Shown one piece after another: positions 6,399-52,017 of a DNA stretch of 64,000 nucleotides. The notes under the pieces were generated by a model. It saw only the letters and a program-made list of their open reading frames with translations, was not told the origin of the DNA and made no database searches. Positions within the stretch are counted from its first letter, which is position 1. Each line of letters starts with the position of its first letter. The position numbers were made by a program, and so were the translations under genes. Origin of the DNA: Candidatus Eiseniibacteriota bacterium (GTDB lineage: Bacteria; Eisenbacteria; RBG-16-71-46); contig CAVUWA010000011.1 in the NCBI GenBank assembly GCA_963744995.1, positions 21,577 through 85,576 of the forward strand, written 5' to 3'.

Positions 6399-6424
6399 CG
6401 GCCCCGGTCCGGAGGAGGAGCGAC

Positions 6425-8467: not shown

Positions 8468-8519
8468 GGGCATGCCCGCGCGCCGGATTCCCCGGGCGGC
8501 GCGCGATCGATTCGAATGC

Positions 8520-8551
8520 GGTCCGTCGCGAAGTTCCGTTCGCGACGGACC
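8520..8551. terminator. Bidirectional terminator hairpin between convergent genes
   Basis: GGTCCGTCGCGAA-gttccg-TTCGCGACGGACC forms a perfect 13-bp stem with a 6-nt loop. It lies between the stops at 8467 (+) and 8561 (-). Confidence 0.5.
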
Positions 8552-8560
8552 GCTTCGACT

Positions 8561-10531: not shown

Positions 10532-10845
10532 GCGGGCCTCGGAGAAGTAGGTGCGGAACGTGGGCCGGGCCGGCGCCCTGGTGGTCCGACAAGTCTAGAT
10601 TCCGCCGCGGGCCGCTGTCTGCAACTTTCCTGAACGCCTGTGGCGGAAGATCGCCGCGAAAGTGGCCCCGCGTGCCGCCGCAGCCGCGCGTGCCGGGCGG
10701 CGGAGCGACCGGGCCTCCCGGGGCGTGTCTTCTCCGAACCGGGGGCTACTTGCGTCGTCCGGGTGGTTGGTGGAACGCTGTGGGGCGGCTGGGCGTGGCC
10801 GGATTCGAGGGGCCCGCCCGCTGAGGGCCGCAGGAGATTCGGGTC

Positions 10846-17426: not shown

Positions 17427-17532
17427 TTCTCGCGTCCGCGTCCGCGACGGGGCGAGGGGCGACCCGGGCAGGGCGTGGTGCAGAACGGCGCCGCGCGCCG
17501 CAGCAACATGCGGGCGCGGCGCCGGAACCGCG

Positions 17533-37560: not shown

Positions 37561-39027
37561 TCAGGCGGCCAGCAGCTCGCCGACGTCCACCACGTGCTCC
37601 TCGGGCCGGAGCACCCGAACGACGCGCTCGGAATCCGGCATCGGATTCCAGGTCTCGGCGCTCTCTTCGGGCTCGAGCGTGCCGTCGGGACGGACCAGCA
37701 CGCGGCAGTACGGACGCCGCGGGTCCTGATGGTTCGGGCTCAGCGCCAGCACGACGTAGCCCGATTCGGTCTGCAGCATCGAGCCCGCCGGGTAGAGCCC
37801 GACCGCGCGCGCCAGCGCCCACAGCACGGCCGGGTCGAACGAGACGCGCGACGGCCCCATCATGTACTGCAGGGCTTCGAACGACGAGCGCGGCCGCTTG
37901 TGATAGGCGCGGTGCGCGGTGATCGCGTCGAAGCAGTCGGCGACCGCCACGATGCGCGACAGCGTCGCCTGGCCCCAGTCGGCGTCGATCTCGGGATAGC
38001 CGGTGCGGTCGAAATTCATGTGGTGCTCGAGACAGACGCGCATCGAGTCGATCGCGAGCGGCGAGAGCCCCGGCATCCGCGTCAGCATGCGCACGCCTTC
38101 GAGCGGGTGCCGGCGCATGAGCCGCCATTCTTCCGACGTGAGCGCCGCGGGCTTCTGCAGCACGTCGGCCGGCACGGCGATCTTGCCCATGTCGTGGAGC
38201 AGCGCCGATACGCCGAGGTCGGCGAGGGTCTGGCGCGACAGCCCCAGCACCTGCCCCATGCCCACCGACATCACGCTCACGTTCACGCAGTGCGCGTAGG
38301 TGTACTCGTCGTGATCCTTGAGCGCCGTGAGCCCCACGATCGAGTACTCGTGGCGCATGATGCTGTCGACCACCGGCTGCACGAGACGCTTCGCGTGACG
38401 CAGGTCGGGGCGGCCGTTCTGCTGCGCACGCAGCAGGATCTTCTTGGTGCCGAGCACCGCCCGCCAGAACACGCGCTTCGCGCGACCGCGTTCGGTGGAC
38501 TGGTCGTTCCGCTCGTCGAGCTGCCTGGTGAGGTCGTCTTCGTCCAGTTCCACGGCCGGCACCGGCACGACGTGCTCGATGCTCGCCTCGCGGACCATTT
38601 CCGGCAGCCGCTCGGCCATCGCCGGGTCCTCGGCGCCGAGGAACAGCTGGAAGAAGCGCTCGAGCTCGGGCGCCGACAGCCCCGGCAGGAACCGCACCCC
38701 GCCGAGCGAGCGGCGCTCGAACTCCGCCATCAGCGTGTGATAGACGGCGAGCAGCTGCTTCTGCGCGCGGACCCGCACGCCGTTCAGATAGAAGTAGTCG
38801 GCCACCGCGACCAGCGCGACTTCGTCCTCGTCCTCGTCGTAGATCTTCTGGAACGTGGCGAGGCAGTCGATGAGCTGGCGCTGAAACGCCTGGTTCGTGA
38901 TGTCGTAGGTGCGCGCGGTCCTCAGCAGTGCCGTCAGACGGATCAGCAGCGCCGCGCCGAGCGCGCCGATCGTCTCGCTGTTGTCGCCTTCGCCCGAGGC
39001 GCTTCTGGGACGCGGGGCTTCAGTCAC
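37561..39027 (-). CDS. HD-GYP domain c-di-GMP phosphodiesterase-like protein
   Basis: HDMGK...HHMNFDRTGYP forms the HD plus GYP signature, preceded by an N-terminal sensory region. Confidence 0.75.
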   Translation of the reverse strand: MTEAPRPRSASGEGDNSETIGALGAALLIRLTALLRTARTYDITNQAFQRQLIDCLATFQKIYDEDEDEVALVAVADYFYLNGVRVRAQKQLLAVYHTLMAEFERRSLGGVRFLPGLSAPELERFFQLFLGAEDPAMAERLPEMVREASIEHVVPVPAVELDEDDLTRQLDERNDQSTERGRAKRVFWRAVLGTKKILLRAQQNGRPDLRHAKRLVQPVVDSIMRHEYSIVGLTALKDHDEYTYAHCVNVSVMSVGMGQVLGLSRQTLADLGVSALLHDMGKIAVPADVLQKPAALTSEEWRLMRRHPLEGVRMLTRMPGLSPLAIDSMRVCLEHHMNFDRTGYPEIDADWGQATLSRIVAVADCFDAITAHRAYHKRPRSSFEALQYMMGPSRVSFDPAVLWALARAVGLYPAGSMLQTESGYVVLALSPNHQDPRRPYCRVLVRPDGTLEPEESAETWNPMPDSERVVRVLRPEEHVVDVGELLAA

Positions 39028-40762
39028 GGGCGTTCCATCCGCCGAGGGCGTCGACGCAGGCCTTCTTCACGGGGCTGCGGCGCGACTCCGCGCCGCGTTC
39101 CAGGATCGCGCGCGCGAGCGGCGTCCCGATGCGCGCGACGATCCGGGCGAGGGCCTGCCGATGCGCCTCCTGCGCACGCGAGAACCAGCTCGTGCGGTGC
39201 AGGTCGGCTTCGATCTCGGGGAGCACTTCGTCGCCGCCGGTGCTGGACAGCGCCGAATAGATCGCCCGCTTCTCCTCGGTCGAGCGCTGCTCGAAGCCGG
39301 GATCCTGCATCATCGCGAGCAGCATGCGCGCGGTGAACGCATCGCGCTCGACCGACAGCTGATGCAGCACCGCCGAGAACATGCGGGCATCGGACGTGTC
39401 GAGCAGCCTGAGCAGCAGCGGGCGCGCGAGACGGAAATCCACCTGGCCGAGCGCGGCCACGACTTCGTGGCGCACGCGCACGTCGGGATGCCGCAGCACG
39501 CTCTCCAGCAGGCCGACGATGCCGTTGCCGCCGATCCAGCCGAGGATGTACACGGTGTTGCGCACCACGTACCAGCGCGGATCCGACATGTGCGGCGCCA
39601 GCCGTTCCGGGTTGTCGTGGCACAGTTCGGCCACGGCCTCGGCGAGCATGCGCCGGTTGCGCCGGTTCTGACTCTCGGCGAGCAGCAGCATCAGCCAGTC
39701 GACCGCCGCGTCGCCGAGCCCGCGCGCGAAGCCGATCATGTCGACGACCGACGAGGCGTCCATCTGGTCCATCCGCTCGACGGTGCCCGACACCGAGATC
39801 GGCTGCTGCAGCTCCTGCACGAAGTTCGAGGCGTTCCAGGCGCCCGCGTCGCATTCCTTGAGCAGGTAGGCGGCTTCGCGCGCTTCGAGCCAGCTGGCGT
39901 GGGCGACGGCCTGGCGCAGCACGCGCGGCAGGAACGCGCCGATCTCGCGGCGGTCTTCGTCGGTGAGCTCGCTGGCAAGCACCGCGTTCGCGATCGCCAG
40001 CATCGCAGTCACCGGCGTGACCGCGTGCTCGGCATGGTACTCGTCGTGGAAGCGCGCGACCTCGCCCGGTGCGAGCTCGTCGAGTTCGGCGAAACCTGCC
40101 TCGATCTCCACGGTCTGATCGCCGACCGTCCAGTCGTCGGAACGGCCGGTGGTCGGCTCGTCCGGCTCGGCGTCCTCTTCCCCGGTCGCGCCTCCCTCCT
40201 GCGTCTCTTCCTCGCCGCCCGCAGTCGGCCACGGCACCAGCTCACCCGACTCCTGGCCGGCGGCGCCGCCGAGGTCGCCCTCCGACGGCACGTAGTCGAT
40301 CTCGATGTGCTGGAGGTTCGCCTCCCAGAGCAGGGTGACCAGGTCGTCGTCGCTTTCGCGCACGCCGGTGACCCGCAGCAGCCCGTCGATCAGCGCGCCC
40401 AGCTCGCGGCCGTCGATGCCGCGCTCGAAGGTGATCGCGCGGATGCCGTCCTGGTAGAACGGCAGCGCGAAGTTGTCATCGCGCGAGCGCGCCGGATAGA
40501 GCGACACGTCCTCGTAGAACACGTCCTCCGACGTGAACCGGTAGCGCAGGGAGGACTGCTCTTGGAGCAGTTTGCGCAGCGACGAGCCCAGATCCTCGCG
40601 AAAGCGGATCACCGTGGGATTGTTCTGGTCGTAGAGACGGCAGGTCTTGAGCGTTCGCGCGAACTGATTCAGCCACGCGGAGGCCGCCTTGACGGACACG
40701 TCCTGGTCGGGCGCGCTGCCGTCCTGGGGCACGTCCTGTGTCGGCTGAATGGGATCGTTCAT
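39020..40762 (-). CDS. HEAT/PBS-lyase-like repeat protein (start chosen at MNDPIQPTQ)
   Basis: The C-terminus has HEAT-like repeats (RWYVVRNTVYILGWIGGNGIVGLLESVLRHPDVRVRHEVVAALGQV) and an acidic linker. Its stop overlaps the HD-GYP start by 8 nt. Confidence 0.5.
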   Translation of the reverse strand: MNDPIQPTQDVPQDGSAPDQDVSVKAASAWLNQFARTLKTCRLYDQNNPTVIRFREDLGSSLRKLLQEQSSLRYRFTSEDVFYEDVSLYPARSRDDNFALPFYQDGIRAITFERGIDGRELGALIDGLLRVTGVRESDDDLVTLLWEANLQHIEIDYVPSEGDLGGAAGQESGELVPWPTAGGEEETQEGGATGEEDAEPDEPTTGRSDDWTVGDQTVEIEAGFAELDELAPGEVARFHDEYHAEHAVTPVTAMLAIANAVLASELTDEDRREIGAFLPRVLRQAVAHASWLEAREAAYLLKECDAGAWNASNFVQELQQPISVSGTVERMDQMDASSVVDMIGFARGLGDAAVDWLMLLLAESQNRRNRRMLAEAVAELCHDNPERLAPHMSDPRWYVVRNTVYILGWIGGNGIVGLLESVLRHPDVRVRHEVVAALGQVDFRLARPLLLRLLDTSDARMFSAVLHQLSVERDAFTARMLLAMMQDPGFEQRSTEEKRAIYSALSSTGGDEVLPEIEADLHRTSWFSRAQEAHRQALARIVARIGTPLARAILERGAESRRSPVKKACVDALGGWNARD

Positions 40763-41159
40763 GGATGAGGTCGGCGCTGTCGACGGAACCGGATGCCGAT
40801 GGCATGCGACGCGCGCATGCCGCGACGCCCCGCGTCCGGGGCGTCCATGGACCGGCCTTTCCCGGTATCGGCGTGGCGGCCGATTCCCTTGAACCGCAAT
40901 CGCACGGCCGGCGCGGTTCGCGGCGCCGAATACGGTGCGGCGGGGCCGCCGGGCGCGGCGCGTGACCGGCGCCGGAGACCGCGCCCGAGACCGGGTCGCG
41001 AGGCGGCCCGGCGTAGCGCGCGGATCGAAACGGAGCGGCGAACCCGTCCCGGGCGGCTCGCACTGACAATCTGTCCGTGGTGGAACTCCACAACCCTTTC
41101 GCGGGTATGGCGTTTCGTCTCCGGCTCGTGGCACGTCCATTGCGGTCGCAACGGCCCCT

Positions 41160-42155
41160 GTGGCGTCACAACCTGTAACTCCATTGAAGAGCGAGGATTT
41201 CGTGTCCGAGCCGGCTCTTGCAGACGGACCGCGCCCGGCGATATCGGTCGTTCAGCCGCCCAAAACCGTGCAGAAAGCACGAACGGGCCCGAGGGCCGAC
41301 TGGGTCGCGCTCGCGCTGCTCGTCGCGGTCCCCCTCGCCCTGACCGTCTGGGGCCGGGCGTACTACGGCGCTCCGGTCGAGGCGCGGGTGCGCAACGGCC
41401 TGCATCCCCTGTTGCGCTCCTCGGGGCTGGTCGGTCAGAGCCTCGGGCTCGCGGGCCTCGCGATGTTCCTGTTCATGTGGCTCTACCCGATCCGCAAGAG
41501 CGTGCGCGCCTTCGCACGGCTCGGCTCGCTGGCCGCCTGGCTGCGCATTCACGTCGTCATCGGGCTCGCGCTGCCGGTCGTCGTGGCGGTCCACGCCGGC
41601 TGGCGTTTCAACGGTCTCGTCGGCCTCGGCTACCTGTCCATGGTCATCGTGTGCGCGAGCGGCATCATCGGCCGTTACCTCTACGCCAGCATGCCGCGGC
41701 GCCGCGACGGTCTCGACATGTCGCGCGAGGAAGTCGTGAACCGCCGCCGCACGCTCGTGACGGAGATCGCCGCGCATCTGGACCTGACGCCGCTCGAGGT
41801 CGAGCACGCGCTCGAGTCGATCCAGCGCCCCGAGCCCGCGAAGGGCCTCGCCGGCTCGGTGCGCCGCCTCCTGACCGACGGCTTCATGCGCGCCCGCGCG
41901 TTGCGCCGGCTGCGGACGACGTGGCTCGCGCCGCGTGCCGGCCGCGCCGCGCTCGACCGCAGAACGCTCGATCAGGCCATGGCGCTCGCCAGTCAGGAGA
42001 TCCGCTTCGGCCAGCAGCTGCAGATGCTCGCATTCACGCAGCGCATCTTCCACTACTGGCACGTCGCCCACCGCCCGTTCGCGATCACCGCGCTCGTCGC
42101 GGTGCTCGTGCACGTCGCGGTCGCGTACTTCACGGGCGCGACCTTCCTCGGCTGA
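41160..42155 (+). CDS. Polytopic membrane protein with His pairs on TM helices (b-type heme/ferric-reductase-like candidate)
   Basis: It has five predicted TM helices. Conserved His sit in TM3 (RIHVVIGLALPVVVAVHAGW) and TM5 (FHYWHVAHRPFAITALVAVLVHV). The start is uncertain. Confidence 0.4.
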   Translation: MASQPVTPLKSEDFVSEPALADGPRPAISVVQPPKTVQKARTGPRADWVALALLVAVPLALTVWGRAYYGAPVEARVRNGLHPLLRSSGLVGQSLGLAGLAMFLFMWLYPIRKSVRAFARLGSLAAWLRIHVVIGLALPVVVAVHAGWRFNGLVGLGYLSMVIVCASGIIGRYLYASMPRRRDGLDMSREEVVNRRRTLVTEIAAHLDLTPLEVEHALESIQRPEPAKGLAGSVRRLLTDGFMRARALRRLRTTWLAPRAGRAALDRRTLDQAMALASQEIRFGQQLQMLAFTQRIFHYWHVAHRPFAITALVAVLVHVAVAYFTGATFLG

Positions 42156-42156
42156 C

Positions 42157-43608
42157 ATGCTGATCTCGATTGCGGCCTTCGTGCTGATCACCGCGATCAG
42201 CGTCTGGTTGCACGTGCGCGCGGGGACCCCGGGTCCGAAGTCCGCGGCCGGCCCCGCGTGCCCGCGTTGCCGCACGCCGCTGCCGCCCGGGGCCGACGCG
42301 TGCCCGGCGTGCGGCGTGCCGCTGCAGGCGCTCGAGCTGGTGGCCGCACCGATCGCGGACGAGCCGGAACCGGCCGCGGCGGCCGACGCCACCGCGCCGC
42401 AGGCGATGCACGCGATGGTCCGCGCGGACGTATGCGTGGGCTGCGGCGCCTGCGTGCCGGTGTGCCCGGAGCCCGGTGCGATCCGGCTCGAGCACAAGCT
42501 GGCGATCGTGAACACCGACCTCTGCAAGGGGCATGGCGAGTGCGTCGCCGCCTGCCCGGTGGGCGGCATCCTGCTGACCTCGGGCGATGCGGTGCAGCGC
42601 ATCGAGACGCCCGACCTCGACGTCTACTTCCAGTCCAACGTGCCCGGGCTCTACGTGGTCGGCGAGCTCGGCGGCCGCGGACTCATCAAGAACGCGGTGA
42701 ACGAGGGCAAGCTCGCGGTCGAGCACGTCGCCAGGCAGATCCGCGGCAACAGCCTGTTCGCGCGGCGCAGCGGCGACGTCTACGACGTCGCGATCGTCGG
42801 CTCGGGCCCGGCCGGTTTGAGTGCCGGCCTCGAAGCGCTGCGCGCCGGTCTGCGCTACGCCCTGCTCGAGCAGGGCGATCTGTCGGATACGATCCGCCGC
42901 TACCCGCGCCACAAGCTGCTGCTCGCCGAGCCGGTGCGCATGCCGCTCTACGGCGATCTCTGGGTCGCCGACGCGTCGAAGGAGTCGCTGCTCCAAGTCT
43001 GGGACACCATGATTCGCCGCACCGGCCTGCGCGTGCACACGCAGCAGCGCGTCGCGGGCGTCGAATGGCGCGGCGACCGGTTCGTGCTCGCCACCCCCGA
43101 TCGCGAGTGGCACGCCCACCACGTCGTGCTCGCGCTCGGCCGGCGCGGGACGCCGCGCCGCCTGGCCGTCCCCGGCGAGGAGCGCCCGAAGGTGTTCTAC
43201 GACATCGTGGAGATGGAGGCCTTCGCCGGCGCGCACGTGCTGGTGGTCGGCGGCGGCGACAGCGCGGTCGAGTCGGCCGTGGGGCTGGCCAACCAGGCGC
43301 ACACGACGGTGACGCTCAGCTACCGCGGCGACGCGTGCTCGCGGGTGAAGGCGCGCAACGTCGAGAAGCTCGAGGCCGAGATCGCGCGCGGCCGGATCCG
43401 CATGCTCTACGGCAGCCAGGTGCTGGAGATCGGCGAGCAGGACGTCACGCTCGACGTGCGGGGCGAGCGGCTCACGCTGCCCAACGAATACGTCATCGTC
43501 CGCATCGGCGGTGTGGCGCCGTACGGATTCCTCGAGCGGATCGGCGTGCGCATCGTGACGCGCGAACTGTCGCTCGGGCAGGCCGCGCAGGCGGCCGCGG
43601 GAGCATGA
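42157..43608 (+). CDS. Membrane-anchored zinc-ribbon plus 2x[4Fe-4S] ferredoxin domain fused to FAD/NAD(P)-dependent pyridine nucleotide-disulfide oxidoreductase
   Basis: An N-terminal TM helix is followed by CPRC...CPAC, then CVGCGACVPVCP and CKGHGECVAACP. The blocks DVAIVGSGPAGLSAG (FAD) and HVLVVGGGDSAVESA (NAD(P)) follow. Confidence 0.65.
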   Translation: MLISIAAFVLITAISVWLHVRAGTPGPKSAAGPACPRCRTPLPPGADACPACGVPLQALELVAAPIADEPEPAAAADATAPQAMHAMVRADVCVGCGACVPVCPEPGAIRLEHKLAIVNTDLCKGHGECVAACPVGGILLTSGDAVQRIETPDLDVYFQSNVPGLYVVGELGGRGLIKNAVNEGKLAVEHVARQIRGNSLFARRSGDVYDVAIVGSGPAGLSAGLEALRAGLRYALLEQGDLSDTIRRYPRHKLLLAEPVRMPLYGDLWVADASKESLLQVWDTMIRRTGLRVHTQQRVAGVEWRGDRFVLATPDREWHAHHVVLALGRRGTPRRLAVPGEERPKVFYDIVEMEAFAGAHVLVVGGGDSAVESAVGLANQAHTTVTLSYRGDACSRVKARNVEKLEAEIARGRIRMLYGSQVLEIGEQDVTLDVRGERLTLPNEYVIVRIGGVAPYGFLERIGVRIVTRELSLGQAAQAAAGA

Positions 43609-43615
43609 GCGGACC

Positions 43616-45454
43616 ATGCGCACGCTCCGGGTCATGCTCGCCCTCGCTCTGGCGGCGGCATCGGGAGCCGGTGTGGCCCGTGCGCAGATCTCGCCGGGGC
43701 CGCTGGCTCGGGCACACGCCGATCTCGACGGCTCGACGAACTGCCTCAAGTGCCACGTGCGGGGCGAGCCGATGAGCAACCGCTGCATGAGCTGCCACAC
43801 CGAAATCGCCGGGGCGCGGAAGGCGCGCCGCGGCCTGCATGGTGGCAAGGCGACCGGTGCGTGCGAGAGCTGCCACCCGGATCATGCCGGCCGCGACTTC
43901 GCACTGATCCAGTGGGAAGGCGGCTCGAAGGAATCGTTCGACCACGCACAGGTCGGATGGGCGCTGGAAGGCGCGCACGCGAAGACCGCATGCGCCGACT
44001 GCCACAAGCCGGCGTTCCAGCAGCCGGAAGCGGCCGCGCGCATCCGGATCAAGGACCGCACGCGCAGCTACCTGGCGCTCGACACCCGCTGCAACACCTG
44101 CCATGAGGATCCGCACAAGAACCGCTTCGGCACGGAGTGCTCGAAGTGCCACGGCACCGCGTCCTGGGAGAAGGTGCGCGAGGACGGCTTCGACCACGAG
44201 CTCACCCGCTACCCGCTGCGCGGGCGCCACGCGAAGCTGGAATGCGCGGCGTGCCACGACGAGAACAAGGCCTGGGGGGCGAAGCCCGCGTTCGCCGCGT
44301 GCGGCGACTGTCACGCCGACGCGCACGCCGGCCGGGCGCAGCTCGCCGGCCGGCCGGCCGACTGCGCCGCCTGCCACGACGTGCGTGGCTTCACACCCTC
44401 GACCATGCCGCTCGCCGAGCACGCGAAGACCGCATATCCGCTCGAGGGCCGCCACGCGAAGGTGGCATGCGCCCGCTGCCACCCGAAGGCCGCCCCCGCC
44501 GCACGCGCGGGGCACGGCACTGCGGGCGTGATCATGCGGCCGGGGTACGCGGCCTGCACGAGCTGCCACGCCGATGCGCATGGCGGCCAGCTCGCCGGGA
44601 AGGACGCGGCGTGCGGGCGCTGCCACGACGTGCGCGGTTTCAAGCCGAGCCGTTTCGGCGTCGCCGAGCACGCGCGCAGCGGATATGCCCTCACCGGCGC
44701 CCACGCGGACGCGGCATGTGCCACCTGCCACGGCGCCGCCCGCAGGGATCTGCCGGCTCCCGCCCGCGCGGCCGGCGCCGGCCAGGCGAAGTTCGTCTTC
44801 GCGATCGCCGAGCGCGCCTGCGCCGACTGCCACGCGGACGTGCATGCTGGATCCCTCACCGGCGCGCAGAAGGACGACCGCGGCTGCGCCGGCTGCCACG
44901 ACACCCGGCACTTCGAACCCTCCGCAGTCGATGCGGCCATGCACGACCGGTACGATTTCCGTCTCGAAGGCGCGCACCGCGCGGTGCCCTGTGTGGCGTG
45001 CCACGAGAGCCTCGAGACCCGTCTGCGCGGCGCCGTGCTCAAAGGGGTCGCCCGGAAGACGACCCCCATCACGTTCGCGCACGAGGACCGCACCTGCGCC
45101 GGTTGCCACGCCAACCCGCACGGCGACCAGTTCGCGGCCCGCAAGGGCGGCCGCGCGTGCGAGACCTGTCACGACGTCGAGCAGTTCGAGCCGGCCTCGA
45201 AGTTCGAGCACGACCGTGACGCGAAGTTCAAGCTGGAGGGCGTGCACGCGCGAATCGCGTGCGCCGCCTGTCACAGGCCGGCCGGCCGCGGCAGCAACGC
45301 CAGCGTCGTCTACCGGGGCACGCCGACGGCGTGCGAAGCCTGTCACCAGGCGGGAACGAACGGCGGTTCGCCCCGCCCCGATGGTTCATCGTCGCGCTCC
45401 ACGGGATCCGTCCCTGCCGCCCTCCGGGCGGCGCACGCGCGGGGAGGTGTCTGA
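43616..45454 (+). CDS. Periplasmic multiheme c-type cytochrome, 20 CXXCH motifs
   Basis: It has a signal peptide (MRTLRVMLALALAAASGAGVARA). I counted 20 CXXCH motifs (CLKCH, CMSCH, CESCH ... CEACH). Confidence 0.8.
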   Translation: MRTLRVMLALALAAASGAGVARAQISPGPLARAHADLDGSTNCLKCHVRGEPMSNRCMSCHTEIAGARKARRGLHGGKATGACESCHPDHAGRDFALIQWEGGSKESFDHAQVGWALEGAHAKTACADCHKPAFQQPEAAARIRIKDRTRSYLALDTRCNTCHEDPHKNRFGTECSKCHGTASWEKVREDGFDHELTRYPLRGRHAKLECAACHDENKAWGAKPAFAACGDCHADAHAGRAQLAGRPADCAACHDVRGFTPSTMPLAEHAKTAYPLEGRHAKVACARCHPKAAPAARAGHGTAGVIMRPGYAACTSCHADAHGGQLAGKDAACGRCHDVRGFKPSRFGVAEHARSGYALTGAHADAACATCHGAARRDLPAPARAAGAGQAKFVFAIAERACADCHADVHAGSLTGAQKDDRGCAGCHDTRHFEPSAVDAAMHDRYDFRLEGAHRAVPCVACHESLETRLRGAVLKGVARKTTPITFAHEDRTCAGCHANPHGDQFAARKGGRACETCHDVEQFEPASKFEHDRDAKFKLEGVHARIACAACHRPAGRGSNASVVYRGTPTACEACHQAGTNGGSPRPDGSSSRSTGSVPAALRAAHARGGV

Positions 45455-46779
45455 TGCACGAGTCGACGCACGGATCGATGCGCACGAGCCCGGGACGGCG
45501 ATTCCGTTTCGCCCGCGCCTTGGCGGTGGTGCTGATGGTCGCTCCACTCGCGGCGCTGGTGGCGCGTGCGGCCACGCGCGATCAGAAACCCGACCACTAC
45601 CCGCACGGCTCGTTCAAGGGCGAGTGCTCCGACTGTCACGGCGCCCAGGGCTGGAAGCCCGCGCGCTTCAGCCGCAAGTTCAACCACGCGAAGTTCGGCT
45701 TCGCGCTAAGCGGCGCGCACGCCGCCGCCGACTGCCGGAGCTGCCACGTGTCGCTGGACTTCTCGGTCGAGAAGACGCGCTGCGAGTCGTGTCACGCCGA
45801 TCCGCACCACGACGAGCTGGGGTCGGACTGCGCGCGCTGCCACACGCCGCGCAGCTTCATCGATCGCAGCGGCATGGTGCGCGCGCACCAGCTCACGCGC
45901 TTCCCGCTCACCGGCAGCCACACGGCGGTCGAGTGCGAGAGCTGCCACAGGCCCGCCGCGGCCGGGCAGATGCAGTTCGTGAACGTGGACGCCGCGTGCA
46001 TCGGCTGCCATCGGGCCGAGTTCCAGTCCGCGAAGGAGCCCGATCACACCGGCTCCGGTTTCCCGACCGATTGCACGTCGTGTCACTCCACGATCTCGTG
46101 GCAGGGCGGCCGTTTCGATCACGCCCGCGTCGCCGGCACGCCGTGCACCCAGTGCCACCTCCCCGACTACCAGGCGACCACGGATCCGGACCACCAGGCG
46201 GCCGGGATTCCGCTCGAGTGCCAGAGCTGCCATTCGACGCTCGCCTGGCAGCCGGCGACCTTCGACCACGCCGCGGTGGCGGGCCAGGCCTGCACCCAGT
46301 GCCACATGGCCGACTACCAGGCCACGACCGACCCGAATCACGGCGCCAACGGCTTCCCGCTCGCGTGCGAGTCGTGTCACTCCACCACCGCCTGGCAGCC
46401 GGCGTCGTTCGACCACGCGTCGGTCGCCGGCACGCCGTGCGCCTCGTGTCACACCGCCGACTACCAGGCGACCACGAATCCGGTCCACTCGAGCTCGGGC
46501 TTCCCGATGACCTGCGGCGACTGCCATGGCACGACCACATGGCTCGGCGCGACGTTCGATCACGATCCGTGGTTCCCGATCTACTCGGGGAGACACGCCG
46601 GAACCTGGAACGACTGCTCGGACTGTCACCAGATGCAGAACGACTTTTCGAACTTCACGTGCCTGACCTGTCACCCGCACGACAACCGGACCGAAACCGA
46701 CGGCCACCACAGCGGCATGTCGGGCTACCGCTACGACAGCCAGGCGTGCTACTCCTGCCACCCGCGGGGGCGCACCTGA
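45454..46779 (+). CDS. Multiheme c-type cytochrome, 16 CXXCH motifs
   Basis: GGAGG lies before the ATG, and the start overlaps the upstream stop (ATGA). It has a signal peptide and 16 CXXCH motifs. Confidence 0.8.
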   Translation: MHESTHGSMRTSPGRRFRFARALAVVLMVAPLAALVARAATRDQKPDHYPHGSFKGECSDCHGAQGWKPARFSRKFNHAKFGFALSGAHAAADCRSCHVSLDFSVEKTRCESCHADPHHDELGSDCARCHTPRSFIDRSGMVRAHQLTRFPLTGSHTAVECESCHRPAAAGQMQFVNVDAACIGCHRAEFQSAKEPDHTGSGFPTDCTSCHSTISWQGGRFDHARVAGTPCTQCHLPDYQATTDPDHQAAGIPLECQSCHSTLAWQPATFDHAAVAGQACTQCHMADYQATTDPNHGANGFPLACESCHSTTAWQPASFDHASVAGTPCASCHTADYQATTNPVHSSSGFPMTCGDCHGTTTWLGATFDHDPWFPIYSGRHAGTWNDCSDCHQMQNDFSNFTCLTCHPHDNRTETDGHHSGMSGYRYDSQACYSCHPRGRT

Positions 46780-48437
46780 TGCGGCGCCGGGGCCTGGCCG
46801 CGTCGCCGGCGGGCGTCGCGTGGCTCGTCCTGTTCGCGTGCGCCGCGTGGCCGGCACGCGCGGCGGCCGCGGACGCCGGCGGGGTCGCGGTGCCGGCGCC
46901 GGCCGCGCCGCGGATCGCCACGACGAAGGTCGTCTACCTCGCCGGCGGCTCGGTGTACGTCGAGGCCGGGCGCCGCGACGGGATCGCCGAGGGTGATACG
47001 CTGGAGGTGCTGCGCGGCGCGCGCACGATCGCCCGGCTGATCGTGACCGCGGTTTCGTCGCGCCGCGCGGCGTGCGACACGTTCGCGGTCGCGCTCGCTC
47101 CCGGGATCGGCGACCCGGTGCGCTACACCGCCGCTCCGGCGCCGGCCGGGACGCCGGCGTCCACGGCGCCCGTTTCACTGCGGCCGCCGTCTTCCGAGGC
47201 CGAAGCCGGCGCCACGCCCCGCGCCGACGGCACGGCCGCGAAGCCGCGCCGCGGCGCGCGCGGGCGCCCCTGGCGCGGCCGCGTGGCGCTGCGCTACCTG
47301 TCGGTGGATCCCGGCGCGGGCGGGGGGTATACGCAGCCCGCGCTCGACGTGCGCGCGGACGGACGCGGCGCCGGTGCGACCCCGCTCGACCTGTCCGTCG
47401 ATCTGCGCAGCCGGCGCACCTACCGCGGCGACCGCCAGGAGGACGTGGCGCGCGTCTACCGTGCGCTCGTCGCCGTCGGCGCGCCCGGCGAGCGGCGCCT
47501 CACCCTCGGCCGCCAGCTCTCCCCCGCCCTCTCGGCGGTAAGCGTGTTCGACGGCGCGCTGTTCGAGACCGCCGCGCACGGCCGGTGGCGGGCCGGAGCA
47601 TTCGCCGGCACGCAGCCCGAGCCCGTCCGTTACCGTCCCTCGGGCGAGATCTTCGAAGCCGGCGCGTTCGCCGAGGCGCGCGCCACGCACGGCCCGCGCC
47701 ACAGCTGGACGCTCACGATGGGCGCGGTGAACTCGCTCGCGCACGGCCAGGTGAACCGGCAGTTCGGGTTCGTGAACGGATTCTTCGTGCGGCCGAAGCT
47801 CATGCTCACCGGCACCCAGGAAATCGATCTCAACACGGGCTGGCGGCGCACGATGGGCGACCCGGCGCTGTCGTTCTCGAGCACGTTCCTGTCGGCGCGC
47901 GCCGAGCTGCTGCACGGGCTCACGTTCTCGACCGGCTACGACGGCCGGCGCAGCGTGCGACTGTGGCGCGACCGCCTGACCCCGGAGACGGAGTTCGACG
48001 ACGCCTATCGCCGCGGCGTGTGGAGCGGGCTCTCCGGCGAAGCCTTCGGCCACGTGCGGCTGACGGTGGACGGTCGCTGGAACGGCAGCGGCAGCCAGCG
48101 CTGGCGCTCGCAGTCGGCTTCGGCCGAGCTGTTCTCGCTGCCGCCCTTCGCCGCGCGCGTGCGATATCGGGTGACCACGTACCGCAACGATGTCACGCGC
48201 GGCGCGCTGCACGCCGCCGGGGTCGGGTTCGATCCGCTCACGCTCCTGCACCTGGAGTGGAACGCCGGCGTGCGGACCTCGCGCGACGACTTCAGCGAGA
48301 GCCGCACGGACTGGCAGTCGCTCGACGCCGATCTCCATCTCACCCGCCGCGCCTACCTGATGATGACCGCGGAATGGGATCGCGGCGACGGCTTCGACGC
48401 GCGCCAGGCGCAGGCCGGCCTCTCCTGGATCTTCTGA
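46779..48437 (+). CDS. Outer-membrane beta-barrel (porin-like) protein, candidate sheath for the cytochromes
   Basis: Its start overlaps the upstream stop, and it has a signal peptide. Amphipathic beta-strand segments alternate with loops. The C-terminus ...AQAGLSWIF ends in Phe, a typical OMP signature. Confidence 0.6.
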   Translation: MRRRGLAASPAGVAWLVLFACAAWPARAAAADAGGVAVPAPAAPRIATTKVVYLAGGSVYVEAGRRDGIAEGDTLEVLRGARTIARLIVTAVSSRRAACDTFAVALAPGIGDPVRYTAAPAPAGTPASTAPVSLRPPSSEAEAGATPRADGTAAKPRRGARGRPWRGRVALRYLSVDPGAGGGYTQPALDVRADGRGAGATPLDLSVDLRSRRTYRGDRQEDVARVYRALVAVGAPGERRLTLGRQLSPALSAVSVFDGALFETAAHGRWRAGAFAGTQPEPVRYRPSGEIFEAGAFAEARATHGPRHSWTLTMGAVNSLAHGQVNRQFGFVNGFFVRPKLMLTGTQEIDLNTGWRRTMGDPALSFSSTFLSARAELLHGLTFSTGYDGRRSVRLWRDRLTPETEFDDAYRRGVWSGLSGEAFGHVRLTVDGRWNGSGSQRWRSQSASAELFSLPPFAARVRYRVTTYRNDVTRGALHAAGVGFDPLTLLHLEWNAGVRTSRDDFSESRTDWQSLDADLHLTRRAYLMMTAEWDRGDGFDARQAQAGLSWIF

Positions 48438-48583
48438 GCGCCTCGGCCGGCCGGCCGCCGTCGCATTGGGGATTTCGCCGCGCTCTGGCATGCTCGCCGC
48501 GGCACATACCGGCGCCCCGCCCGTGCGGGGCGCGCCGCGGGCCGCGGCCACATCACCTTCGAACCCACGCGACGGAGATCCGC

Positions 48584-48991
48584 ATGAAGGGCAACACCGA
48601 TCCCTGGACGTCCCTCGGCCTGCTGATCCTGCGCCTCGGGACCGGGGGCCTGCTGTTCTACGGCCACGGCTGGGGCAAGCTCCTCCACTTCGGCAGCCGC
48701 ATTCACGGTTTTTCGAACCCGATCGGTCTCGGTCCCGAGGCCAGCTTCGTGCTGGTCGTCTTCGCCGAGGCCGTCTGCAGCACCCTCGTCGCGCTCGGCC
48801 TGTGGACGCGGCTCGCGGCGATTCCCATCGTGATCTTCGCGATCGTCGCAGTGTTCGGCCAGCACTGGCACGATCCGTTCGCGAAGAAGGAGCTGGCGCT
48901 GCTTTACGGGATTCCGGCGCTGACGATCGCGCTCACCGGCGCGGGCACGTTCTCGCTGGACACGCTCCTCGGCGGGAAGCGGGGCGGGTAA
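48584..48991 (+). CDS. DoxX-family membrane protein
   Basis: GGAG lies before the ATG. LGLLILRLGTGGLLFYGHGWGKL... is a DoxX-like 4-TM unit. Confidence 0.7.
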   Translation: MKGNTDPWTSLGLLILRLGTGGLLFYGHGWGKLLHFGSRIHGFSNPIGLGPEASFVLVVFAEAVCSTLVALGLWTRLAAIPIVIFAIVAVFGQHWHDPFAKKELALLYGIPALTIALTGAGTFSLDTLLGGKRGG

Positions 48992-48998
48992 CGGCCGA

Positions 48999-50639
48999 GT
49001 GATGCGCTTCGCCGGCGTCGCGCTCGCCGCCATCTGCGCGCTCACGCTGTTCACGGGACTCGATCGCGTCGGCTACCTCGACTGGCGCGAGGCCCGCGAC
49101 GTCGAAGTCGCCCGCGAGATGATCACGCGGCACGAAGTCCTGACGCCGCTCTACGGCGACGAGGCGCATCTCGAGAAGCCGGCTGCGGCCTACGGGCCGG
49201 AAGCGCTCGTGCAGCTGGCGACGGCGGGCTCGCCGGCCGCATCACGGCGGCTGCGCGCGATCTACGCGATCGTGCTCGTCGTGCTCACCGGCTCGATCGG
49301 CGCACAGCTGTTCGGCGTGCGCGCCGGCGTGCTCGCTTCGATCGTGCTTTCCACCTCGCTCATGCTGCCGCTCGCCGCGCGCATGGACGGCACGCAACTG
49401 CTGGCCACCCTGCTCGGCTGGGCGGGCGTGGCGGGCTTCGCGGACGCGCAGTTCGAGCGGCGACCGGGCGGCGGCTCGCGCCTGCTCGTGGCGTGGGCGG
49501 CGCTGGCCGCGGCACTGGTGATCGGCGGCCCGTTGCCCGCGCTCTGGCCGATCGGCGGCTGGGCACTCTATCTCGCGCTCGCCCGTTCGAGCGACGGCTG
49601 GCGGCGCATCGCGCTGCCGGCCGGCGTGATCATGATGATCGGCATCGCGCTCCCCTGGTACGGCGCGATGACCGAGCGCATGGGCACGGCGTTCCTTGCC
49701 CGCGTGCCGTTCTTCCCGTACGCGACCGAAGCGCGCGGGCCGTGGTGGTCGGGCCCGGTCCTGACCGTTTCGTTCCTCGTGGTCGGATTCTTCCCGTGGA
49801 GCGCGATGCTGCCGGGGGCGCTCACCCACGCGGCGATCTGGTGGCGGCGCGTCCTGCGCGCGCCGGTGCTCGGCGGGCGCGGCGACGCGCGCCACGATCC
49901 GATCGTGCGCGAAGTGCGCGAAGAGGGCGCCGCGCACTTCATGATCGCCTGCATGGCCGCGGCGCTCGCACCGATCGTGCTCTACCCGGGCGCGCCGCTC
50001 ACGGCGGCGCTGCCCGCGGTGCCCGCGGCCGCGCTGCTGTGCGGACGCCTGCTCGATCACGTGTTCGAAGACCCCGCGCGCCTGCGCGCGCCGGTGCGCA
50101 ACGCGGTGTTCATGCTGGCGTTCGTCGGCTCGGTCGGCGCGGTGCTGCTGGCGATGATCGGCCCGCGCATCCGCGAGGCCGAGCCCGAACTGCGGCTCGT
50201 GGCGACCGTGGTGTTCGCGACGTCGTGGCTGCCGCTGCTCGCGCATCTCGCGGGCCGCAGGCGGATCGCCGCGGTCGCGCTCGCACTGCCGGTGGCGATC
50301 GGCGCGCCGGTCGTGCAGCTGAAGCTGCTGCCGAAGATGGAGACCTGGCTCGACACCCGGGCGGTCGCAGAGGCGATGCGCGCCGCCGCCCCGGCCCGGG
50401 CGGCGCTGGTCACCCCGGCGCCGCCGCGCCCGTCATTGCGCCTCGACCTGGATCGCAACATCGTGGTCGCCGACTCGCTCGCCCGGGCGGTCGCAGCGCA
50501 ACGGGCCAGCGATGGGCTCACCTACATCGCATTCCGCCCCTACGACGAGGGCCGGGTCGCCAGCGACGCCGGCGGCACGCTCGAGATCATGCTGCGCACG
50601 CCGGCCCTGGTGCTGGCACGCGTGCATCCGGTGCGCTAG
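48999..50639 (+). CDS. GT-C glycosyltransferase, family 39 (ArnT/PMT-like)
   Basis: A DE-type first loop is present (YLDWREARDVEVAREMI; compare ArnT PDETRYAEISREML), followed by many TM helices. Confidence 0.55.
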   Translation: MMRFAGVALAAICALTLFTGLDRVGYLDWREARDVEVAREMITRHEVLTPLYGDEAHLEKPAAAYGPEALVQLATAGSPAASRRLRAIYAIVLVVLTGSIGAQLFGVRAGVLASIVLSTSLMLPLAARMDGTQLLATLLGWAGVAGFADAQFERRPGGGSRLLVAWAALAAALVIGGPLPALWPIGGWALYLALARSSDGWRRIALPAGVIMMIGIALPWYGAMTERMGTAFLARVPFFPYATEARGPWWSGPVLTVSFLVVGFFPWSAMLPGALTHAAIWWRRVLRAPVLGGRGDARHDPIVREVREEGAAHFMIACMAAALAPIVLYPGAPLTAALPAVPAAALLCGRLLDHVFEDPARLRAPVRNAVFMLAFVGSVGAVLLAMIGPRIREAEPELRLVATVVFATSWLPLLAHLAGRRRIAAVALALPVAIGAPVVQLKLLPKMETWLDTRAVAEAMRAAAPARAALVTPAPPRPSLRLDLDRNIVVADSLARAVAAQRASDGLTYIAFRPYDEGRVASDAGGTLEIMLRTPALVLARVHPVR

Positions 50640-50657: not shown

Positions 50658-51770
50658 CTACGACGCCTGCCGCCGCGTGCCCTCGGCGAGCGCCACGATC
50701 ATCGCCGCGGCTTCCCGGGCGTCGGCGGGCAGCAGGCCGATGCCTTTGGCGCGCAGCCAGTCCGGTTCACGCAGCGCGCCCGGCCCGCCGACCACGAGCA
50801 GCGGCGGCTTGCGCATCGCGGCGAGCCGCTTCGCGCTGCGGGCGAGGTCCTCCTTCGGCAGATCGAGGGTCGCCGACAGCGCCACGACGCGGACGCCCGA
50901 GCGGTGCATGGCGCGTTCGAGCGCAACCGACGGCATGTCGGCGCCGAGGTAGAGCGTGCTCACGCCTTCGAGACCGATCTCGAGGGTGAGCAGCATCAGC
51001 ATGATGTCGTGCGCGTCCCCCGGCGCGCACGCGCAGAGCACGCGCGCGCTCTGGTGCAACGGACGGAGCCCGGCGAGGCTCGCACTCAGCCGTTCGCGCG
51101 CGAACGCCGACAGGAAGTGCTCCTGGGCGATCGCCTCCGGCGTCTCCCGGTAGCGGGCGCCGATGCGCGCGAGCGCGGGCGCCAGGGCTTCGTAGAACGC
51201 GTCGCGCAGCGAGTAGATGCCGACGGCGCGCGCGAACGCCTGTTCGAGCGCCGCGCGGTCGAATCCGGCGGCCGCGCGCTCGATGGCGGCCGAGTACTCC
51301 GCGAGCGTCTCGATCGAACGCGCGCTGCGGCCGCGCCTCGGCACCCGGATGGAAACGCTGCCGCTCAACCCGACGTTCTCGAGCGACAGCGACACGGTGC
51401 GTGTCGCGGGTTCGCCTTCGCGGCGCGCCGTGCGGACCTGCCGCTTGCGCGGCGCGGCGGCAGCCTCGCCGTCGCCGTCCGCGGTCGCCTGTTCGAGGTG
51501 GCTCTCCACCTGGCTGATCGGGATGCCCTGCTCGAGCACGCGCTTGATGCGCCGCAGGCGCTCGAGATCGGTTTCGGAATACAGGCGGTAGCCCTTCGGC
51601 GTGCGCGCCGGCCGGATCAGATGGTAGCGCCGCTCCCAGGAGCGGAGCGTGTTGGCGTTGATGCCGCTCAGGGCGCAGGCGGACCGGATCGTGTAGCGGG
51701 CGGTCTTGGGCACGGTTCGAAGTCCTTGTGCGTCGAAGCGATCGGCAGGCATTCCGTCCGGAGCATCCAC
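50658..51770 (-). CDS. MerR-family regulator with C-terminal cobalamin-binding-like domain (LitR/CarH-type light-responsive regulator candidate)
   Basis: It has an N-terminal MerR HTH (YTIRSACALSGINANTLRSWERRY...YRLYSETDLERLRRIK). The C-terminal region carries B12-binding-like elements: GDAHDIM (a DxHxxG variant), VVALSATLD (SxL) and LLVVGGPG (GG). Confidence 0.6.
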   Translation of the reverse strand: MDAPDGMPADRFDAQGLRTVPKTARYTIRSACALSGINANTLRSWERRYHLIRPARTPKGYRLYSETDLERLRRIKRVLEQGIPISQVESHLEQATADGDGEAAAAPRKRQVRTARREGEPATRTVSLSLENVGLSGSVSIRVPRRGRSARSIETLAEYSAAIERAAAGFDRAALEQAFARAVGIYSLRDAFYEALAPALARIGARYRETPEAIAQEHFLSAFARERLSASLAGLRPLHQSARVLCACAPGDAHDIMLMLLTLEIGLEGVSTLYLGADMPSVALERAMHRSGVRVVALSATLDLPKEDLARSAKRLAAMRKPPLLVVGGPGALREPDWLRAKGIGLLPADAREAAAMIVALAEGTRRQAS

Positions 51771-52017
51771 CGGCGCGCCTCATTGTGCATGGATTGTGCA
51801 AACATGGACTTGGATGCACCGTGCAGCTGAATCGTTTGCGAAAAATACAGGCTGTTCCGGTGGCATCCCGGAAACCTTGTGCAAACCTGTCATGGACCTG
51901 GCCGGGGCATCGGAACGGGATCGGGCCGGCGCAGCGCTCCGGCCATGTGTCCGGGCGAGATGCCCGGGGCCGCGCCCGGGGCCCCACCCCGGCTCATTCC
52001 ACACGGGAGCATTCCGC
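51771..52017. promoter_or_regulatory. Divergent promoter region between the LitR-like gene and photolyase, with repeated TTGTGCA(AAC) elements and palindromes
   Basis: TTGTGCAAAC-n-CATGGAC occurs twice, at 51794-51809 and 51877-51897. The palindrome TGCACcGTGCA is at 51815-51825. The inverted repeat TTCCGGtggcatCCGGAA is at 51855-51873. Confidence 0.35.

Follow-up and report, generated by a model that had tools for sequence, protein, structure and literature searches.

A predicted PCC3/PCC4-like porin-cytochrome cluster of Candidatus Eisenbacteria with a proposed NAD(P)H-linked entry module

To our knowledge, the well-studied extracellular electron-transfer pathways of diderm bacteria all start at quinol dehydrogenases. 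A gene cluster of a Candidatus Eiseniibacteriota bacterium (GCA_963744995.1), located in the 64,000-nucleotide stretch of contig CAVUWA010000011.1 analyzed here (positions 21,577 to 85,576, hereafter the window), raises the question of whether electrons might instead pass directly from cytoplasmic NAD(P)H to the cell surface, as the initial annotation of the locus had proposed.

Gene content, boundaries, and distribution of the cluster

The cluster consists of five translationally coupled genes, A to E, on the + strand of the window (41160-48437), listed here with the gene that follows them:

Gene A, 41160..42155, + strand: 331-residue inner-membrane protein, putative di-haem b cytochrome (NCBI start at 41202)
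Gene B, 42157..43608, + strand: 483-residue membrane-anchored Zn-ribbon, double Fe-S ferredoxin and NAD(P)H flavoprotein
Gene C, 43616..45454, + strand: 612-residue, 20-haem c-type cytochrome, proposed periplasm-spanning wire
Gene D, 45454..46779, + strand: 441-residue, 16-haem c-type cytochrome, proposed outward extension of variable length
Gene E, 46779..48437, + strand: 552-residue modeled 22-strand outer-membrane β barrel with a small conserved N-terminal β domain
Gene F, 48584..48991, + strand: DoxX protein (E 2e-14), outside the system

Gaps of 1 and 7 nt separate A from B and B from C, respectively, and the C/D and D/E junctions are 1-nt overlaps with the sequence TGATG at each, which bears out the overlapping start and stop codons reported at first; a GGAGG lies upstream of D. 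All the genes described were found on the + strand, as annotated, but seven had been counted between 41160 and 48991, where there are six, since the seventh co-directional gene (49002-50639) falls outside. The latter, which has a weak match to ArnT, was rejected as a member of the system because none of the related loci carries a homolog. The DoxX gene is present as annotated but its assignment to the conduit was not upheld, as it follows E after a gap of 146 nt and occurs in none of approximately 85 related loci. Between 40400 and 51000, a promoter scan found no sigma-70-like site, and a terminator scan gave a single terminator-like match, inside gene A, which is below chance expectation. Rfam has no match anywhere in the window.

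Parts A to E recur in approximately 80 genomes of Eisenbacteria, Gemmatimonadota, Acidobacteriota, and KSB1, and also, as A-B-C-D-E after ccsA, on plasmid pEMTOL02 of the cultured Emticicia oligotrophica DSM 17448 (EMTOL_RS21090-21110). For each of the five proteins, the nearest relatives come from Candidatus Eisenbacteria MAGs. The translational coupling of the genes and their being kept together in such distant genomes agree with their co-transcription. Such a cluster had been considered unexpected in an organism with T9SS-type surface biology, a view that does not hold, as such clusters are a characteristic feature of Eisenbacteria, Gemmatimonadota, KSB1, and Bacteroidota.

Gene order is more fluid than gene content. 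A homolog of B adjoins A in 77 of 80 genome loci and in every permutation, across at least six phylum-level lineages: B is divergent and upstream of A in Gemmatimonadales, a KSB1 MAG has the order B-A-C-D-E, and another genome C...E-x-A-B. In Sphingobium, a different flavo-Fe-S protein is encoded immediately upstream of the A-like gene. Where both A and E are present, a C-type cytochrome gene lies between them in all 54 loci, of which 52 also carry D. D is missing in loci L011, L032, and L088. Two apparent A-B fusions (P0268 and P0249) proved to be frameshift artefacts, their linker and tail regions being Arg/Pro/Gly-rich out-of-frame read-through, and thus lend no Rosetta-stone support to the pairing of A with B.

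The multihaem cytochromes and the β barrel

C has exactly 20 CxxCH motifs, 40 Cys residues overall, 30.6 residues per haem and a signal-like N-terminus, and D has exactly 16 such motifs, 32 Cys residues, 27.6 residues per haem and a Sec-type signal. The haem counts initially assigned were thus exact. Together, the 36 motifs in 1053 residues use all the cysteines, and the chance expectation of such a pattern is estimated at well below 0.01. In Pfam, C matches Cytochrome_C7 (6e-24) and Cytochrom_c3_2. It also carries 20 non-motif His residues that are at least 90% conserved; as these distal His equal the haems in number, every haem of C is bis-His ligated, and C is an electron wire rather than a catalytic enzyme. 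A catalytic multihaem enzyme of nitrite, sulfite or hydroxylamine type was accordingly rejected for C, which has no CxxCK motif; D, too, contains only CxxCH motifs. Enzymes of nitrite/sulfite-reductase type had been named as fatal to the conduit.

The haem number is fixed in homologs of C, at 20 (30 loci) or 23 (23 loci). In contrast, homologs of D combine a 7-haem head, a variable number of trihaem repeats and a 3-haem tail, for 10 to 68 haems. Because a periplasmic spacer cannot vary so much, this difference fits an extracellular location for D. A lipobox was found in neither C nor D, a Cys precedes the first haem motif in only 11 of 52 homologs of D, and the candidate role of D as a lipoprotein similar to MtrC or OmcB is unsupported.

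E is a 552-residue protein with an N-terminal hydrophobic, signal-like segment and the C-terminal sequence ...SWIF, as first described, and its barrel fold was confirmed by a model with 22 strands and a small conserved β domain at the N-terminus. Neither Pfam nor NCBIfam gives a match that would assign it to a barrel family, and tblastn found no homologs of E in plasmids. One might suppose that C and D store electrons in the periplasm or partner a reductase located there, and that E is an ordinary solute porin, such that nothing crosses the outer membrane. This appears highly improbable: E is translationally coupled to D and accompanies A, B, and C in all arrangements, in L088 as a fusion with an AMIN domain, the haem number of D, at 10 to 68, varies too much for a periplasm whose width is fixed, and neither a catalytic haem nor a reductase gene accompanies the cluster.

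The locus had been likened to the Mtr, Pcc, and Ext conduits. The conduit-type architecture stands, but membership of those families does not, as the cytochromes give only sub-threshold matches to the DmsE family (52.7 bits, cut-off 192.2) and to the OmcA/MtrC family (32 bits, cut-off 209.3). The A to E proteins have no family-level sequence similarity to MtrCAB of Shewanella or the OmbB-OmaB-OmcB Pcc of Geobacter, and they differ from these systems in several respects. The barrel has 22 strands vs. 26 in MtrB, the cytochromes carry 20 + 16 haems rather than 10 + 10 or 8 + 12, and there is no lipoprotein cytochrome, whereas the surface cytochrome of the MtrCAB and Pcc systems is a lipoprotein. 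Finally, the protein at the inner-membrane entry is no quinol dehydrogenase of the CymA, ImcH, or CbcL kind.

The inner-membrane entry module

A has five hydrophobic helices, at residues 46-64, 90-114, 124-145, 152-176, and 267-324, according to hydropathy and an AF2 model. It has no match in Pfam or NCBIfam and, in a profile search, no relatives among the sequences of solved structures. The motifs S167GIIG171, W127LRIH131...H145, and W300HVAH304...H318 are invariant in 32-34 homologs, and the SGXXG and WX3HX13H patterns are also found in the homologs of Emticicia, Sphingobium, KSB1, and L088. The two WX3HX13H motifs support the earlier description of a polytopic protein with His pairs on its transmembrane helices, and they suggest that A may carry b haems.

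The same signature has been described in PCC3 and PCC4, two kinds of predicted porin-cytochrome clusters (He et al., 2017, PMC5566968; Gallionellaceae pangenome, PMC10734462). Their inner-membrane protein has approximately 300 residues and five transmembrane segments, with SGXXG on TM4 and WX3HX13H on TM3 and TM5 (PMC5566968), and A, with its 331 residues and five helices, has all of these motifs. The remaining PCC3/PCC4 gene content is present as well, i.e., a barrel gene, a cytochrome with at least 20 haems and a second, repeat-rich multihaem cytochrome. By motifs and gene content, the predicted PCC3/PCC4 class is the closest described kind of system. In PCC3, too, one cytochrome is fixed at 20 haems or more and the other is repeat-rich, with 10-35 haems vs. 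10-68 here, and PCC3 cytochromes of 21-27 haems have been argued in published work to be able to span the periplasm. PCC4 subgroup II likewise has an Fe-S protein gene next to that of the inner-membrane protein. However, PCC3 comprises four genes and no flavoprotein, whereas here a flavoprotein-ferredoxin similar to TrxR and YpdA that would use NAD(P)H is a near-obligatory fifth gene, and the hosts are Eisenbacteria, Gemmatimonadota, Acidobacteriota, KSB1, and Bacteroidota instead of Proteobacteria and Planctomycetes. A and the A-like protein of Sphingobium are related (BLASTP E 5.5e-10), the Sphingobium locus being only PCC4-like.

The fifth gene, B, encodes an N-terminal transmembrane helix, a double zinc ribbon, a 4Fe-4S dicluster domain and a flavin domain, with Pfam matches to DZR, Fer4_21, and Pyr_redox_3 (E 2e-38, 132.6 bits vs. 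a cut-off of 30). The initial reading of B as a zinc ribbon and double Fe-S ferredoxin joined to a flavoprotein was correct, except that the second Fe-S motif is not all-Cys: CxxCxxCxxxCP and CxxHxxCxxxCP occur without exception in the 75 homologs. Of these, 61 have the zinc ribbon. The closest solved relatives are YpdA/Bdr (6e-32), followed by TrxR and TrxR-like FNR, but the match to TIGR04018 (YpdA) is not at equivalog level (153.5 bits, cut-off 339.9). The flavin domain has conserved GxGxxG, GGGDSA, and YRG..R motifs and, among 75 homologs, no conserved Cys. The redox-active CxxC of TrxR is missing, which makes B an electron-transfer flavoprotein rather than a thiol reductase. Basic residues follow the transmembrane helix and there is no twin-arginine signal, which suggests that the catalytic domains are cytoplasmic.

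The two HX13H pairs of A, on TM3 and TM5, are arranged as in the ferric reductase domain/NADPH oxidase (FRD/NOX) superfamily (PF01794). No member of the A family matches PF01794 above threshold; 27 of 32 give sub-threshold Ferric_reduct matches (best E 0.03). FRD, NOX, and STEAP proteins have six helices vs. five in A. In FRD and NOX proteins an FNR-type dehydrogenase is fused to the membrane domain, whereas here a distinct polypeptide of TrxR/YpdA fold, anchored in the membrane, would supply the dehydrogenase, two Fe-S clusters would intervene, and the acceptor would be a multihaem cytochrome rather than O2 or Fe(III) directly. With an order of carriers from NAD(P)H to FAD, Fe-S clusters and two b haems, A and B together would nonetheless resemble a split NADPH oxidase or ferric reductase, for which no quinone is needed.

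Adjacency of such genes has been reported before. In a survey of karst MAGs, 7 of the 11 clusters in one group had a gene annotated as 'ferredoxin-NADP reductase' nearby (PMC13264449, 2026), and the contig of its MAG SAR286, our locus L058, carries A-B-C-D-E. The survey described the adjacency only, without the inner-membrane motif, the Fe-S/His signature, the haem modularity or a mechanism. The predicted PCC3/PCC4 kind of cluster and the FNR adjacency (PMC13264449) are known, and what sets the present variant apart is its proposed NAD(P)H-linked entry module.

Electron flow, possible roles, and significance

Taken together, we lean towards A to E forming a PCC3/PCC4-like conduit across the whole envelope, with an NAD(P)H-fed entry, outward flow and no need for quinone. 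Cytoplasmic NAD(P)H would reduce the FAD of B, whose two Fe-S clusters, including that with the invariant Cys3-His motif, would relay the electrons to A. There they would cross the membrane through two stacked b haems, one towards the cytoplasm, coordinated by H131/H304, and one towards the periplasm, coordinated by H145/H318. From the periplasmic face they would enter C, a fixed-length wire of 20 bis-His haems bridging the periplasm, and exit through the barrel E; D, with its widely varying haem number, may lengthen the wire outward. Such a route would probably serve to dump reducing equivalents outside the cell, for example on Fe(III)/Mn(IV) minerals or humics and possibly on O2, and it is unlikely to conserve energy as proton motive force. 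Among the points that run counter to this model, NAD(P)H-driven export would dissipate the membrane potential, which would be odd for a respiratory system, and D has neither a lipobox nor a known route to the surface.

The PCC3/PCC4 inner-membrane protein has been proposed to be quinone-active (He et al., 2017, PMC5566968), and proteobacterial PCC3 clusters are frequent in iron oxidizers, where flow would be inward. By analogy, A might be a di-haem cytochrome b that reacts with quinone and links the menaquinone pool to C, with flow outward for metal reduction or inward for Fe(II)/Mn(II) oxidation. B, instead of being the obligatory donor, would then be an auxiliary feeder of NAD(P)H:quinone type or would regulate the redox state of A. 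Eight of 32 A members and the Sphingobium homolog weakly match Ni_hydr_CYTB, a quinone-reactive family of cytochrome b561 type, which is in line with this proposal. Still, it is unlikely in our view, as no quinone-site motif was identified, and B stays next to A through every rearrangement, whereas proteobacterial PCC3 clusters are described without such a partner. Moreover, the membrane potential should aid transfer from inside to outside, and the reverse, to NAD(P)+, would be uphill both thermodynamically and electrically, which makes outward flow likely.

Alternatively, the system might be a diderm counterpart of the ferric reductases of yeast or plants, or of NADPH oxidase, an assimilatory or chemical-offense device of mostly aerobic heterotrophs that spends NAD(P)H on dissolving Fe(III) minerals for iron uptake or on producing extracellular superoxide. 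Its input logic, similar to that of NOX/FRE proteins, would consume NAD(P)H without energy conservation. The loci examined hold one cluster each with no neighboring respiratory genes, and the hosts include Gemmatimonadota and Emticicia oligotrophica, which is aerobic. This reading is nevertheless decidedly unlikely. The cluster has no linked genes of iron-uptake, Fur-box-like or superoxide-related type, the region upstream of A (40763-41159) is GC-rich along its whole length, and wires of 40-68 haems seem more than iron scavenging needs.

Returning to the NAD(P)H-fed conduit, a bolder form of it, plausible though short of probable, is that A and B constitute a previously unrecognized, quinone-independent inner-membrane entry of split NOX-like type, running from NAD(P)H and FAD over a Cys4 and then a Cys3His Fe-S cluster to two b haems, that feeds a periplasm-spanning 20-haem wire and an extracellular wire tunable in length from 10 to 68 haems. 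It would be widespread among largely aerobic bacteria of the FCB group and Acidobacteriota, and it might balance redox state, acquire iron reductively or produce extracellular superoxide rather than sustain energy-conserving respiration.

If the model is correct, a direct feed from NAD(P)H would represent a bioenergetic solution different from that of quinol-started conduits, and it would give a concrete role to the unexplained inner-membrane protein of PCC3/PCC4. The presence of the same five genes on a plasmid of a cultured bacterium, E. oligotrophica DSM 17448, makes the hypothesis directly testable. It would also bring redox chemistry with minerals or humics to phyla that abound in soil and groundwater but are not counted among the electroactive ones, namely Eisenbacteria, Gemmatimonadota, Acidobacteriota, KSB1, and Bacteroidota.

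Layout of the cluster and its surroundings

Five genes, designated A to E, follow one another nearly without spacers between positions 41160 and 48437 of a window with a G+C content of approximately 70%. Their junctions, with gaps of ≤7 nt or TGATG overlaps, bear out the co-directional arrangement with overlapping start and stop codons described in the initial annotation. The features discussed are as follows.

14820-17543, - strand: large secreted-looking protein coding, C-terminal FlgD_ig
37561-41140, - strand: HD-GYP-type HD_5 protein and HEAT-repeat protein
41160-42155, + strand: A, inner-membrane protein (331 aa)
42157-43608, + strand: B, flavoprotein with zinc ribbon and ferredoxin domain (483 aa), 1-nt gap after A
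43616-45454, + strand: C, cytochrome (612 aa), 7-nt gap after B
45454-46779, + strand: D, cytochrome (441 aa), TGATG overlap with C, GGAGG ahead of D
46779-48437, + strand: E, barrel protein (552 aa), TGATG overlap with D
48584-48991, + strand: DoxX gene, 146-nt gap after E
48584-50639: DoxX paired with a polytopic 545-aa protein that starts 10 nt after it and has a weak ArnT-like match
50658-53427: MerR-family regulator with B12-binding domains (CarH-like, - strand), divergent from an ORF that would encode a photolyase-like protein

The DoxX protein had been counted as a conduit member. This assignment did not hold, given the gap that separates its gene from E and the failure of tblastn to find either DoxX or the ArnT-like gene in any of 80 related loci; the two form a separate pair downstream of the cluster and neighbor no cluster elsewhere. 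Scanned with consensus patterns, the A-E region showed neither a sigma-70-like promoter nor a convincing terminator, and Rfam gave no match. Upstream of A, on the opposite strand, the first ~125 residues of the long HEAT-repeat ORF whose end lies at 41140 are Arg/Pro-rich and are probably not translated, with a plausible start near 40762, and the non-coding DNA upstream of A probably amounts to ~400 nt. The CarH-like regulator and the photolyase-like ORF may constitute a light-response unit. The large secreted-looking proteins ending in FlgD_ig, in the window and in the related locus L003 (14461-17262), where Por_Secre_tail is also found, are consistent with the T9SS-type surface biology raised earlier for this organism.

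The predicted entry module

A has no match in Pfam or NCBIfam, and neither Foldseek nor a profile search of PDB sequences returned any relative. It has five TM helices, with a helical insert of roughly 90 residues between helices 4 and 5. Comparison of 32-34 homologs revealed that His131, His145, His301, His304, and His318 are invariant, as are W127, S167-G168-x-x-G171, and W300. The invariant histidines thus provide two His pairs with a spacing of exactly 13 residues on helices 3 and 5, as the initial annotation had proposed in outline, and with an N-terminus inside, both helices would run from inside to outside. Such an arrangement is what holds two stacked b haems in cytochrome b and ferric-reductase/NOX domains (He et al., 2017, PMC5566968). 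Sub-threshold Pfam matches to Ferric_reduct and DUF4405 (27/32 members) and to Ni_hydr_CYTB (8/32) would lend weak independent support to a b-haem reading of A. The charge distribution suggests that the large insert is cytoplasmic and that the C-terminus and the conserved first loop are periplasmic.

B starts with a TM helix followed by basic residues, with no twin-arginine motif. Behind this anchor come a zinc ribbon with four Cys, the ferredoxin domain, and a flavoprotein domain of the Pyr_redox_3 family, in keeping with the membrane-anchored fusion initially described. Its nearest solved relatives are YpdA/Bdr, followed by thioredoxin reductases and TrxR-like ferredoxin-NADP reductases. Among 75 homologs, the cluster motifs CxxCxxCxxxCP (first) and CxxHxxCxxxCP (second) are invariant and the zinc ribbon is kept in 61; conservation extends to the two dinucleotide motifs and to a YRG..R stretch, and the flavin domain contains no conserved Cys. 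B is thus an electron-transfer flavoprotein that is linked to NAD(P)H and carries a ferredoxin with two clusters of its own, and it is not a disulfide reductase. The His of the second motif (residues 123-134) is invariant in 75/75 homologs and also in Emticicia, in a KSB1 MAG, and in the related locus L088, which suggests that the second cluster is Cys3His-ligated (or 3Fe); it is possibly the exit cluster towards A. A conserved stretch at residues ~160-195, VPGLYVVGELGGRGLIKNAxNEG, resembles the FAD 'GD' segment found C-terminally in thioredoxin reductases, and its location ahead of the first GxGxxG suggests that the flavin domain is circularly permuted. Three database proteins in which A seems to be joined to B or to some other sequence (P0268, P0249, and P0364) contain long Arg/Pro/Gly-rich out-of-frame stretches and were discarded as gene-calling artefacts of high-GC contigs.

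Cytochromes and barrel

Both cytochromes begin with a signal-like segment, and their haem numbers agree with those first reported: 20 CxxCH motifs account for all 40 cysteines of C, and 16 for all 32 of D. Outside the CxxCH motifs, precisely 20 histidines of C reach ≥90% conservation among the 20-haem homologs, which provides a distal His for every haem. Such ligation marks C as an electron wire; a catalytic multihaem enzyme, a possibility that had been raised as a check on the conduit reading, is rejected. The haem count of C is constant, at 20 (30 loci) or 23 (23 loci), and its fixed length fits a periplasm-spanning role, as has likewise been argued in the literature for the 21-27-haem cytochrome of the predicted PCC3 porin-cytochrome clusters.

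D is strictly modular. In the window (45454-46779) and in loci L002-L083, L084, and L086, it consists of a 7-haem head (spacings 36,16,16,35,21,25), n trihaem units of 73 residues (32,16,25), and a 3-haem tail (35,15,29). Counts of 10, 13, 16, 19, 22, 25, 28, 31, 34, 37, 40, 43, and 68 haems are seen, with 22 in KSB1, 40 in Emticicia, and 68 in L037. The D protein of the window has the total length and haem number of the n=2 form, with the first motif of each unit shifted by ~8 residues. A protein whose length varies six-fold could not be housed in a fixed-width gap, and D thus most likely reaches beyond the cell envelope; it is not a lipoprotein.

E has no Pfam or NCBIfam match above threshold. 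A confident structure model (pLDDT 83.4), with 46 homologs as input, starts with a signal-like helix and a six-strand β domain at residues 45-118; a disordered linker leads from there to a barrel of 22 strands that occupies residues 166-551 and has SWIF at its end, in agreement with the barrel of about 550 aa, signal peptide, and C-terminal Phe initially described. The small β domain, for which a weak FlgT_C match is the sole family hint, is strongly conserved: Y60, G64, G72, G111, and D112 do not vary, and S93, R96, and C99 hardly do. This domain could be a plug or a cytochrome docking site.

Distribution, electron route, and relation to known systems

Homologs number 151 for E and, in a word-indexed search, 793 for A; none is annotated, and those with names come mostly from Candidatus Eisenbacteria. 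In a full HMM scan, 2,965 representative clusters were A-like at E ≤0.001. In the 80 loci obtained from species-representative genomes (Eisenbacteria, Gemmatimonadota, Acidobacteriota, Krumholzibacteriia, and others), tblastn with seven window proteins as queries placed B next to A in 77. A C-type cytochrome lies between A and E in all 54 loci that have both, and D is present in 52; L011 and L032 pass directly from C to E. Gene order varies. In a Gemmatimonadales subset, B is divergent and upstream of A and has lost the zinc ribbon while retaining the TM anchor, and in the KSB1 MAG the order is B-A-C(20)-D(22)-E. Locus L088 encodes a 23-haem C, an AMIN-domain protein holding an E-like barrel, a 273-aa protein, A, and B; D is absent, and the C-like gene lies 3 kb upstream. 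In the 993-aa protein that contains this barrel (6202-9183), AMIN is N-terminal and the barrel C-terminal. The cultured Bacteroidota strain Emticicia oligotrophica DSM 17448 has ccsA, A, B, C, D, and E in this order on its 100-kb plasmid pEMTOL02, with identities of 30% (A), 35% (B), and 20% (E; E-value 1e-7), a 23-haem C, and a 40-haem D. On this plasmid (locus L084; NC_018749.1, 78197-89995) the cluster directly follows ccsA, a gene for cytochrome c biogenesis with a product of 1028 aa, and a GW-domain protein comes next. That linkage is kept despite such rearrangements across phyla is strong evidence that A, B, C, and E act together, with D as an optional extension.

On a Sphingobium plasmid (AP027331.1, Sphingobium sp. 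TomTYG65; positions 6299-11492 of the locus), an A-like gene has a different flavoprotein upstream (841 aa; Pyr_redox_3 with two cNMP-binding domains and Fer4_11 as its tail) and a decahaem cytochrome downstream; the arrangement may represent a relative of the A+B module that is regulated by nucleotides. The N-terminus of the decahaem cytochrome weakly matches the Yop-YscD cytoplasmic domain family.

The best-supported reading is a trans-envelope conduit in which electrons would pass from NAD(P)H to the FAD and two Fe-S clusters of B, the two b haems of A, C, and E, with D beyond. The anchor of B would place its domains in the cytoplasm, a topology consistent with a conduit. Alternatively, A may carry a quinone site, so that entry would be quinone-linked. 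For the NAD(P)H-linked conduit, the redox drop and the membrane potential both favor outward flow, and import to NAD(P)+ would be uphill on both counts, hence the direction is probably export. As no energy would be conserved along this route, its role is probably to dispose of electrons, to acquire iron reductively, or to drive reactive-oxygen chemistry, rather than to serve respiration.

The Geobacter/Shewanella-type conduit first proposed stands in outline, but Pfam and NCBIfam searches place none of A-E in the Mtr, Pcc, or Ext families. They rather resemble the predicted PCC3/PCC4 clusters: A has every element of the inner-membrane-protein motif definition of He et al. (2017), and one fixed cytochrome is combined with one variable, repeat-rich cytochrome, as in PCC3, a likeness judged by the published definition and cytochrome pattern. 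In PCC4 subgroup II, an Fe-S gene adjoins that of the inner-membrane protein (He et al., 2017), and a survey of karst MAGs reported ferredoxin-NADP reductase genes near some porin-cytochrome clusters (2026, PMC13264449); it lists MAG SAR286, whose contig is our locus L058. The cluster type itself has thus already been predicted. New here are the near-obligatory flavo-Fe-S partner and the invariant Cys3His motif in it. The interpretation of A+B as a NOX-like unit is also new, as are the building of D from trihaem modules, the range of phyla that have the cluster, and a host in culture. If extracellular electron transfer were indeed entered from NAD(P)H without quinones, this would be a genuine surprise, and the idea can now be tested directly.
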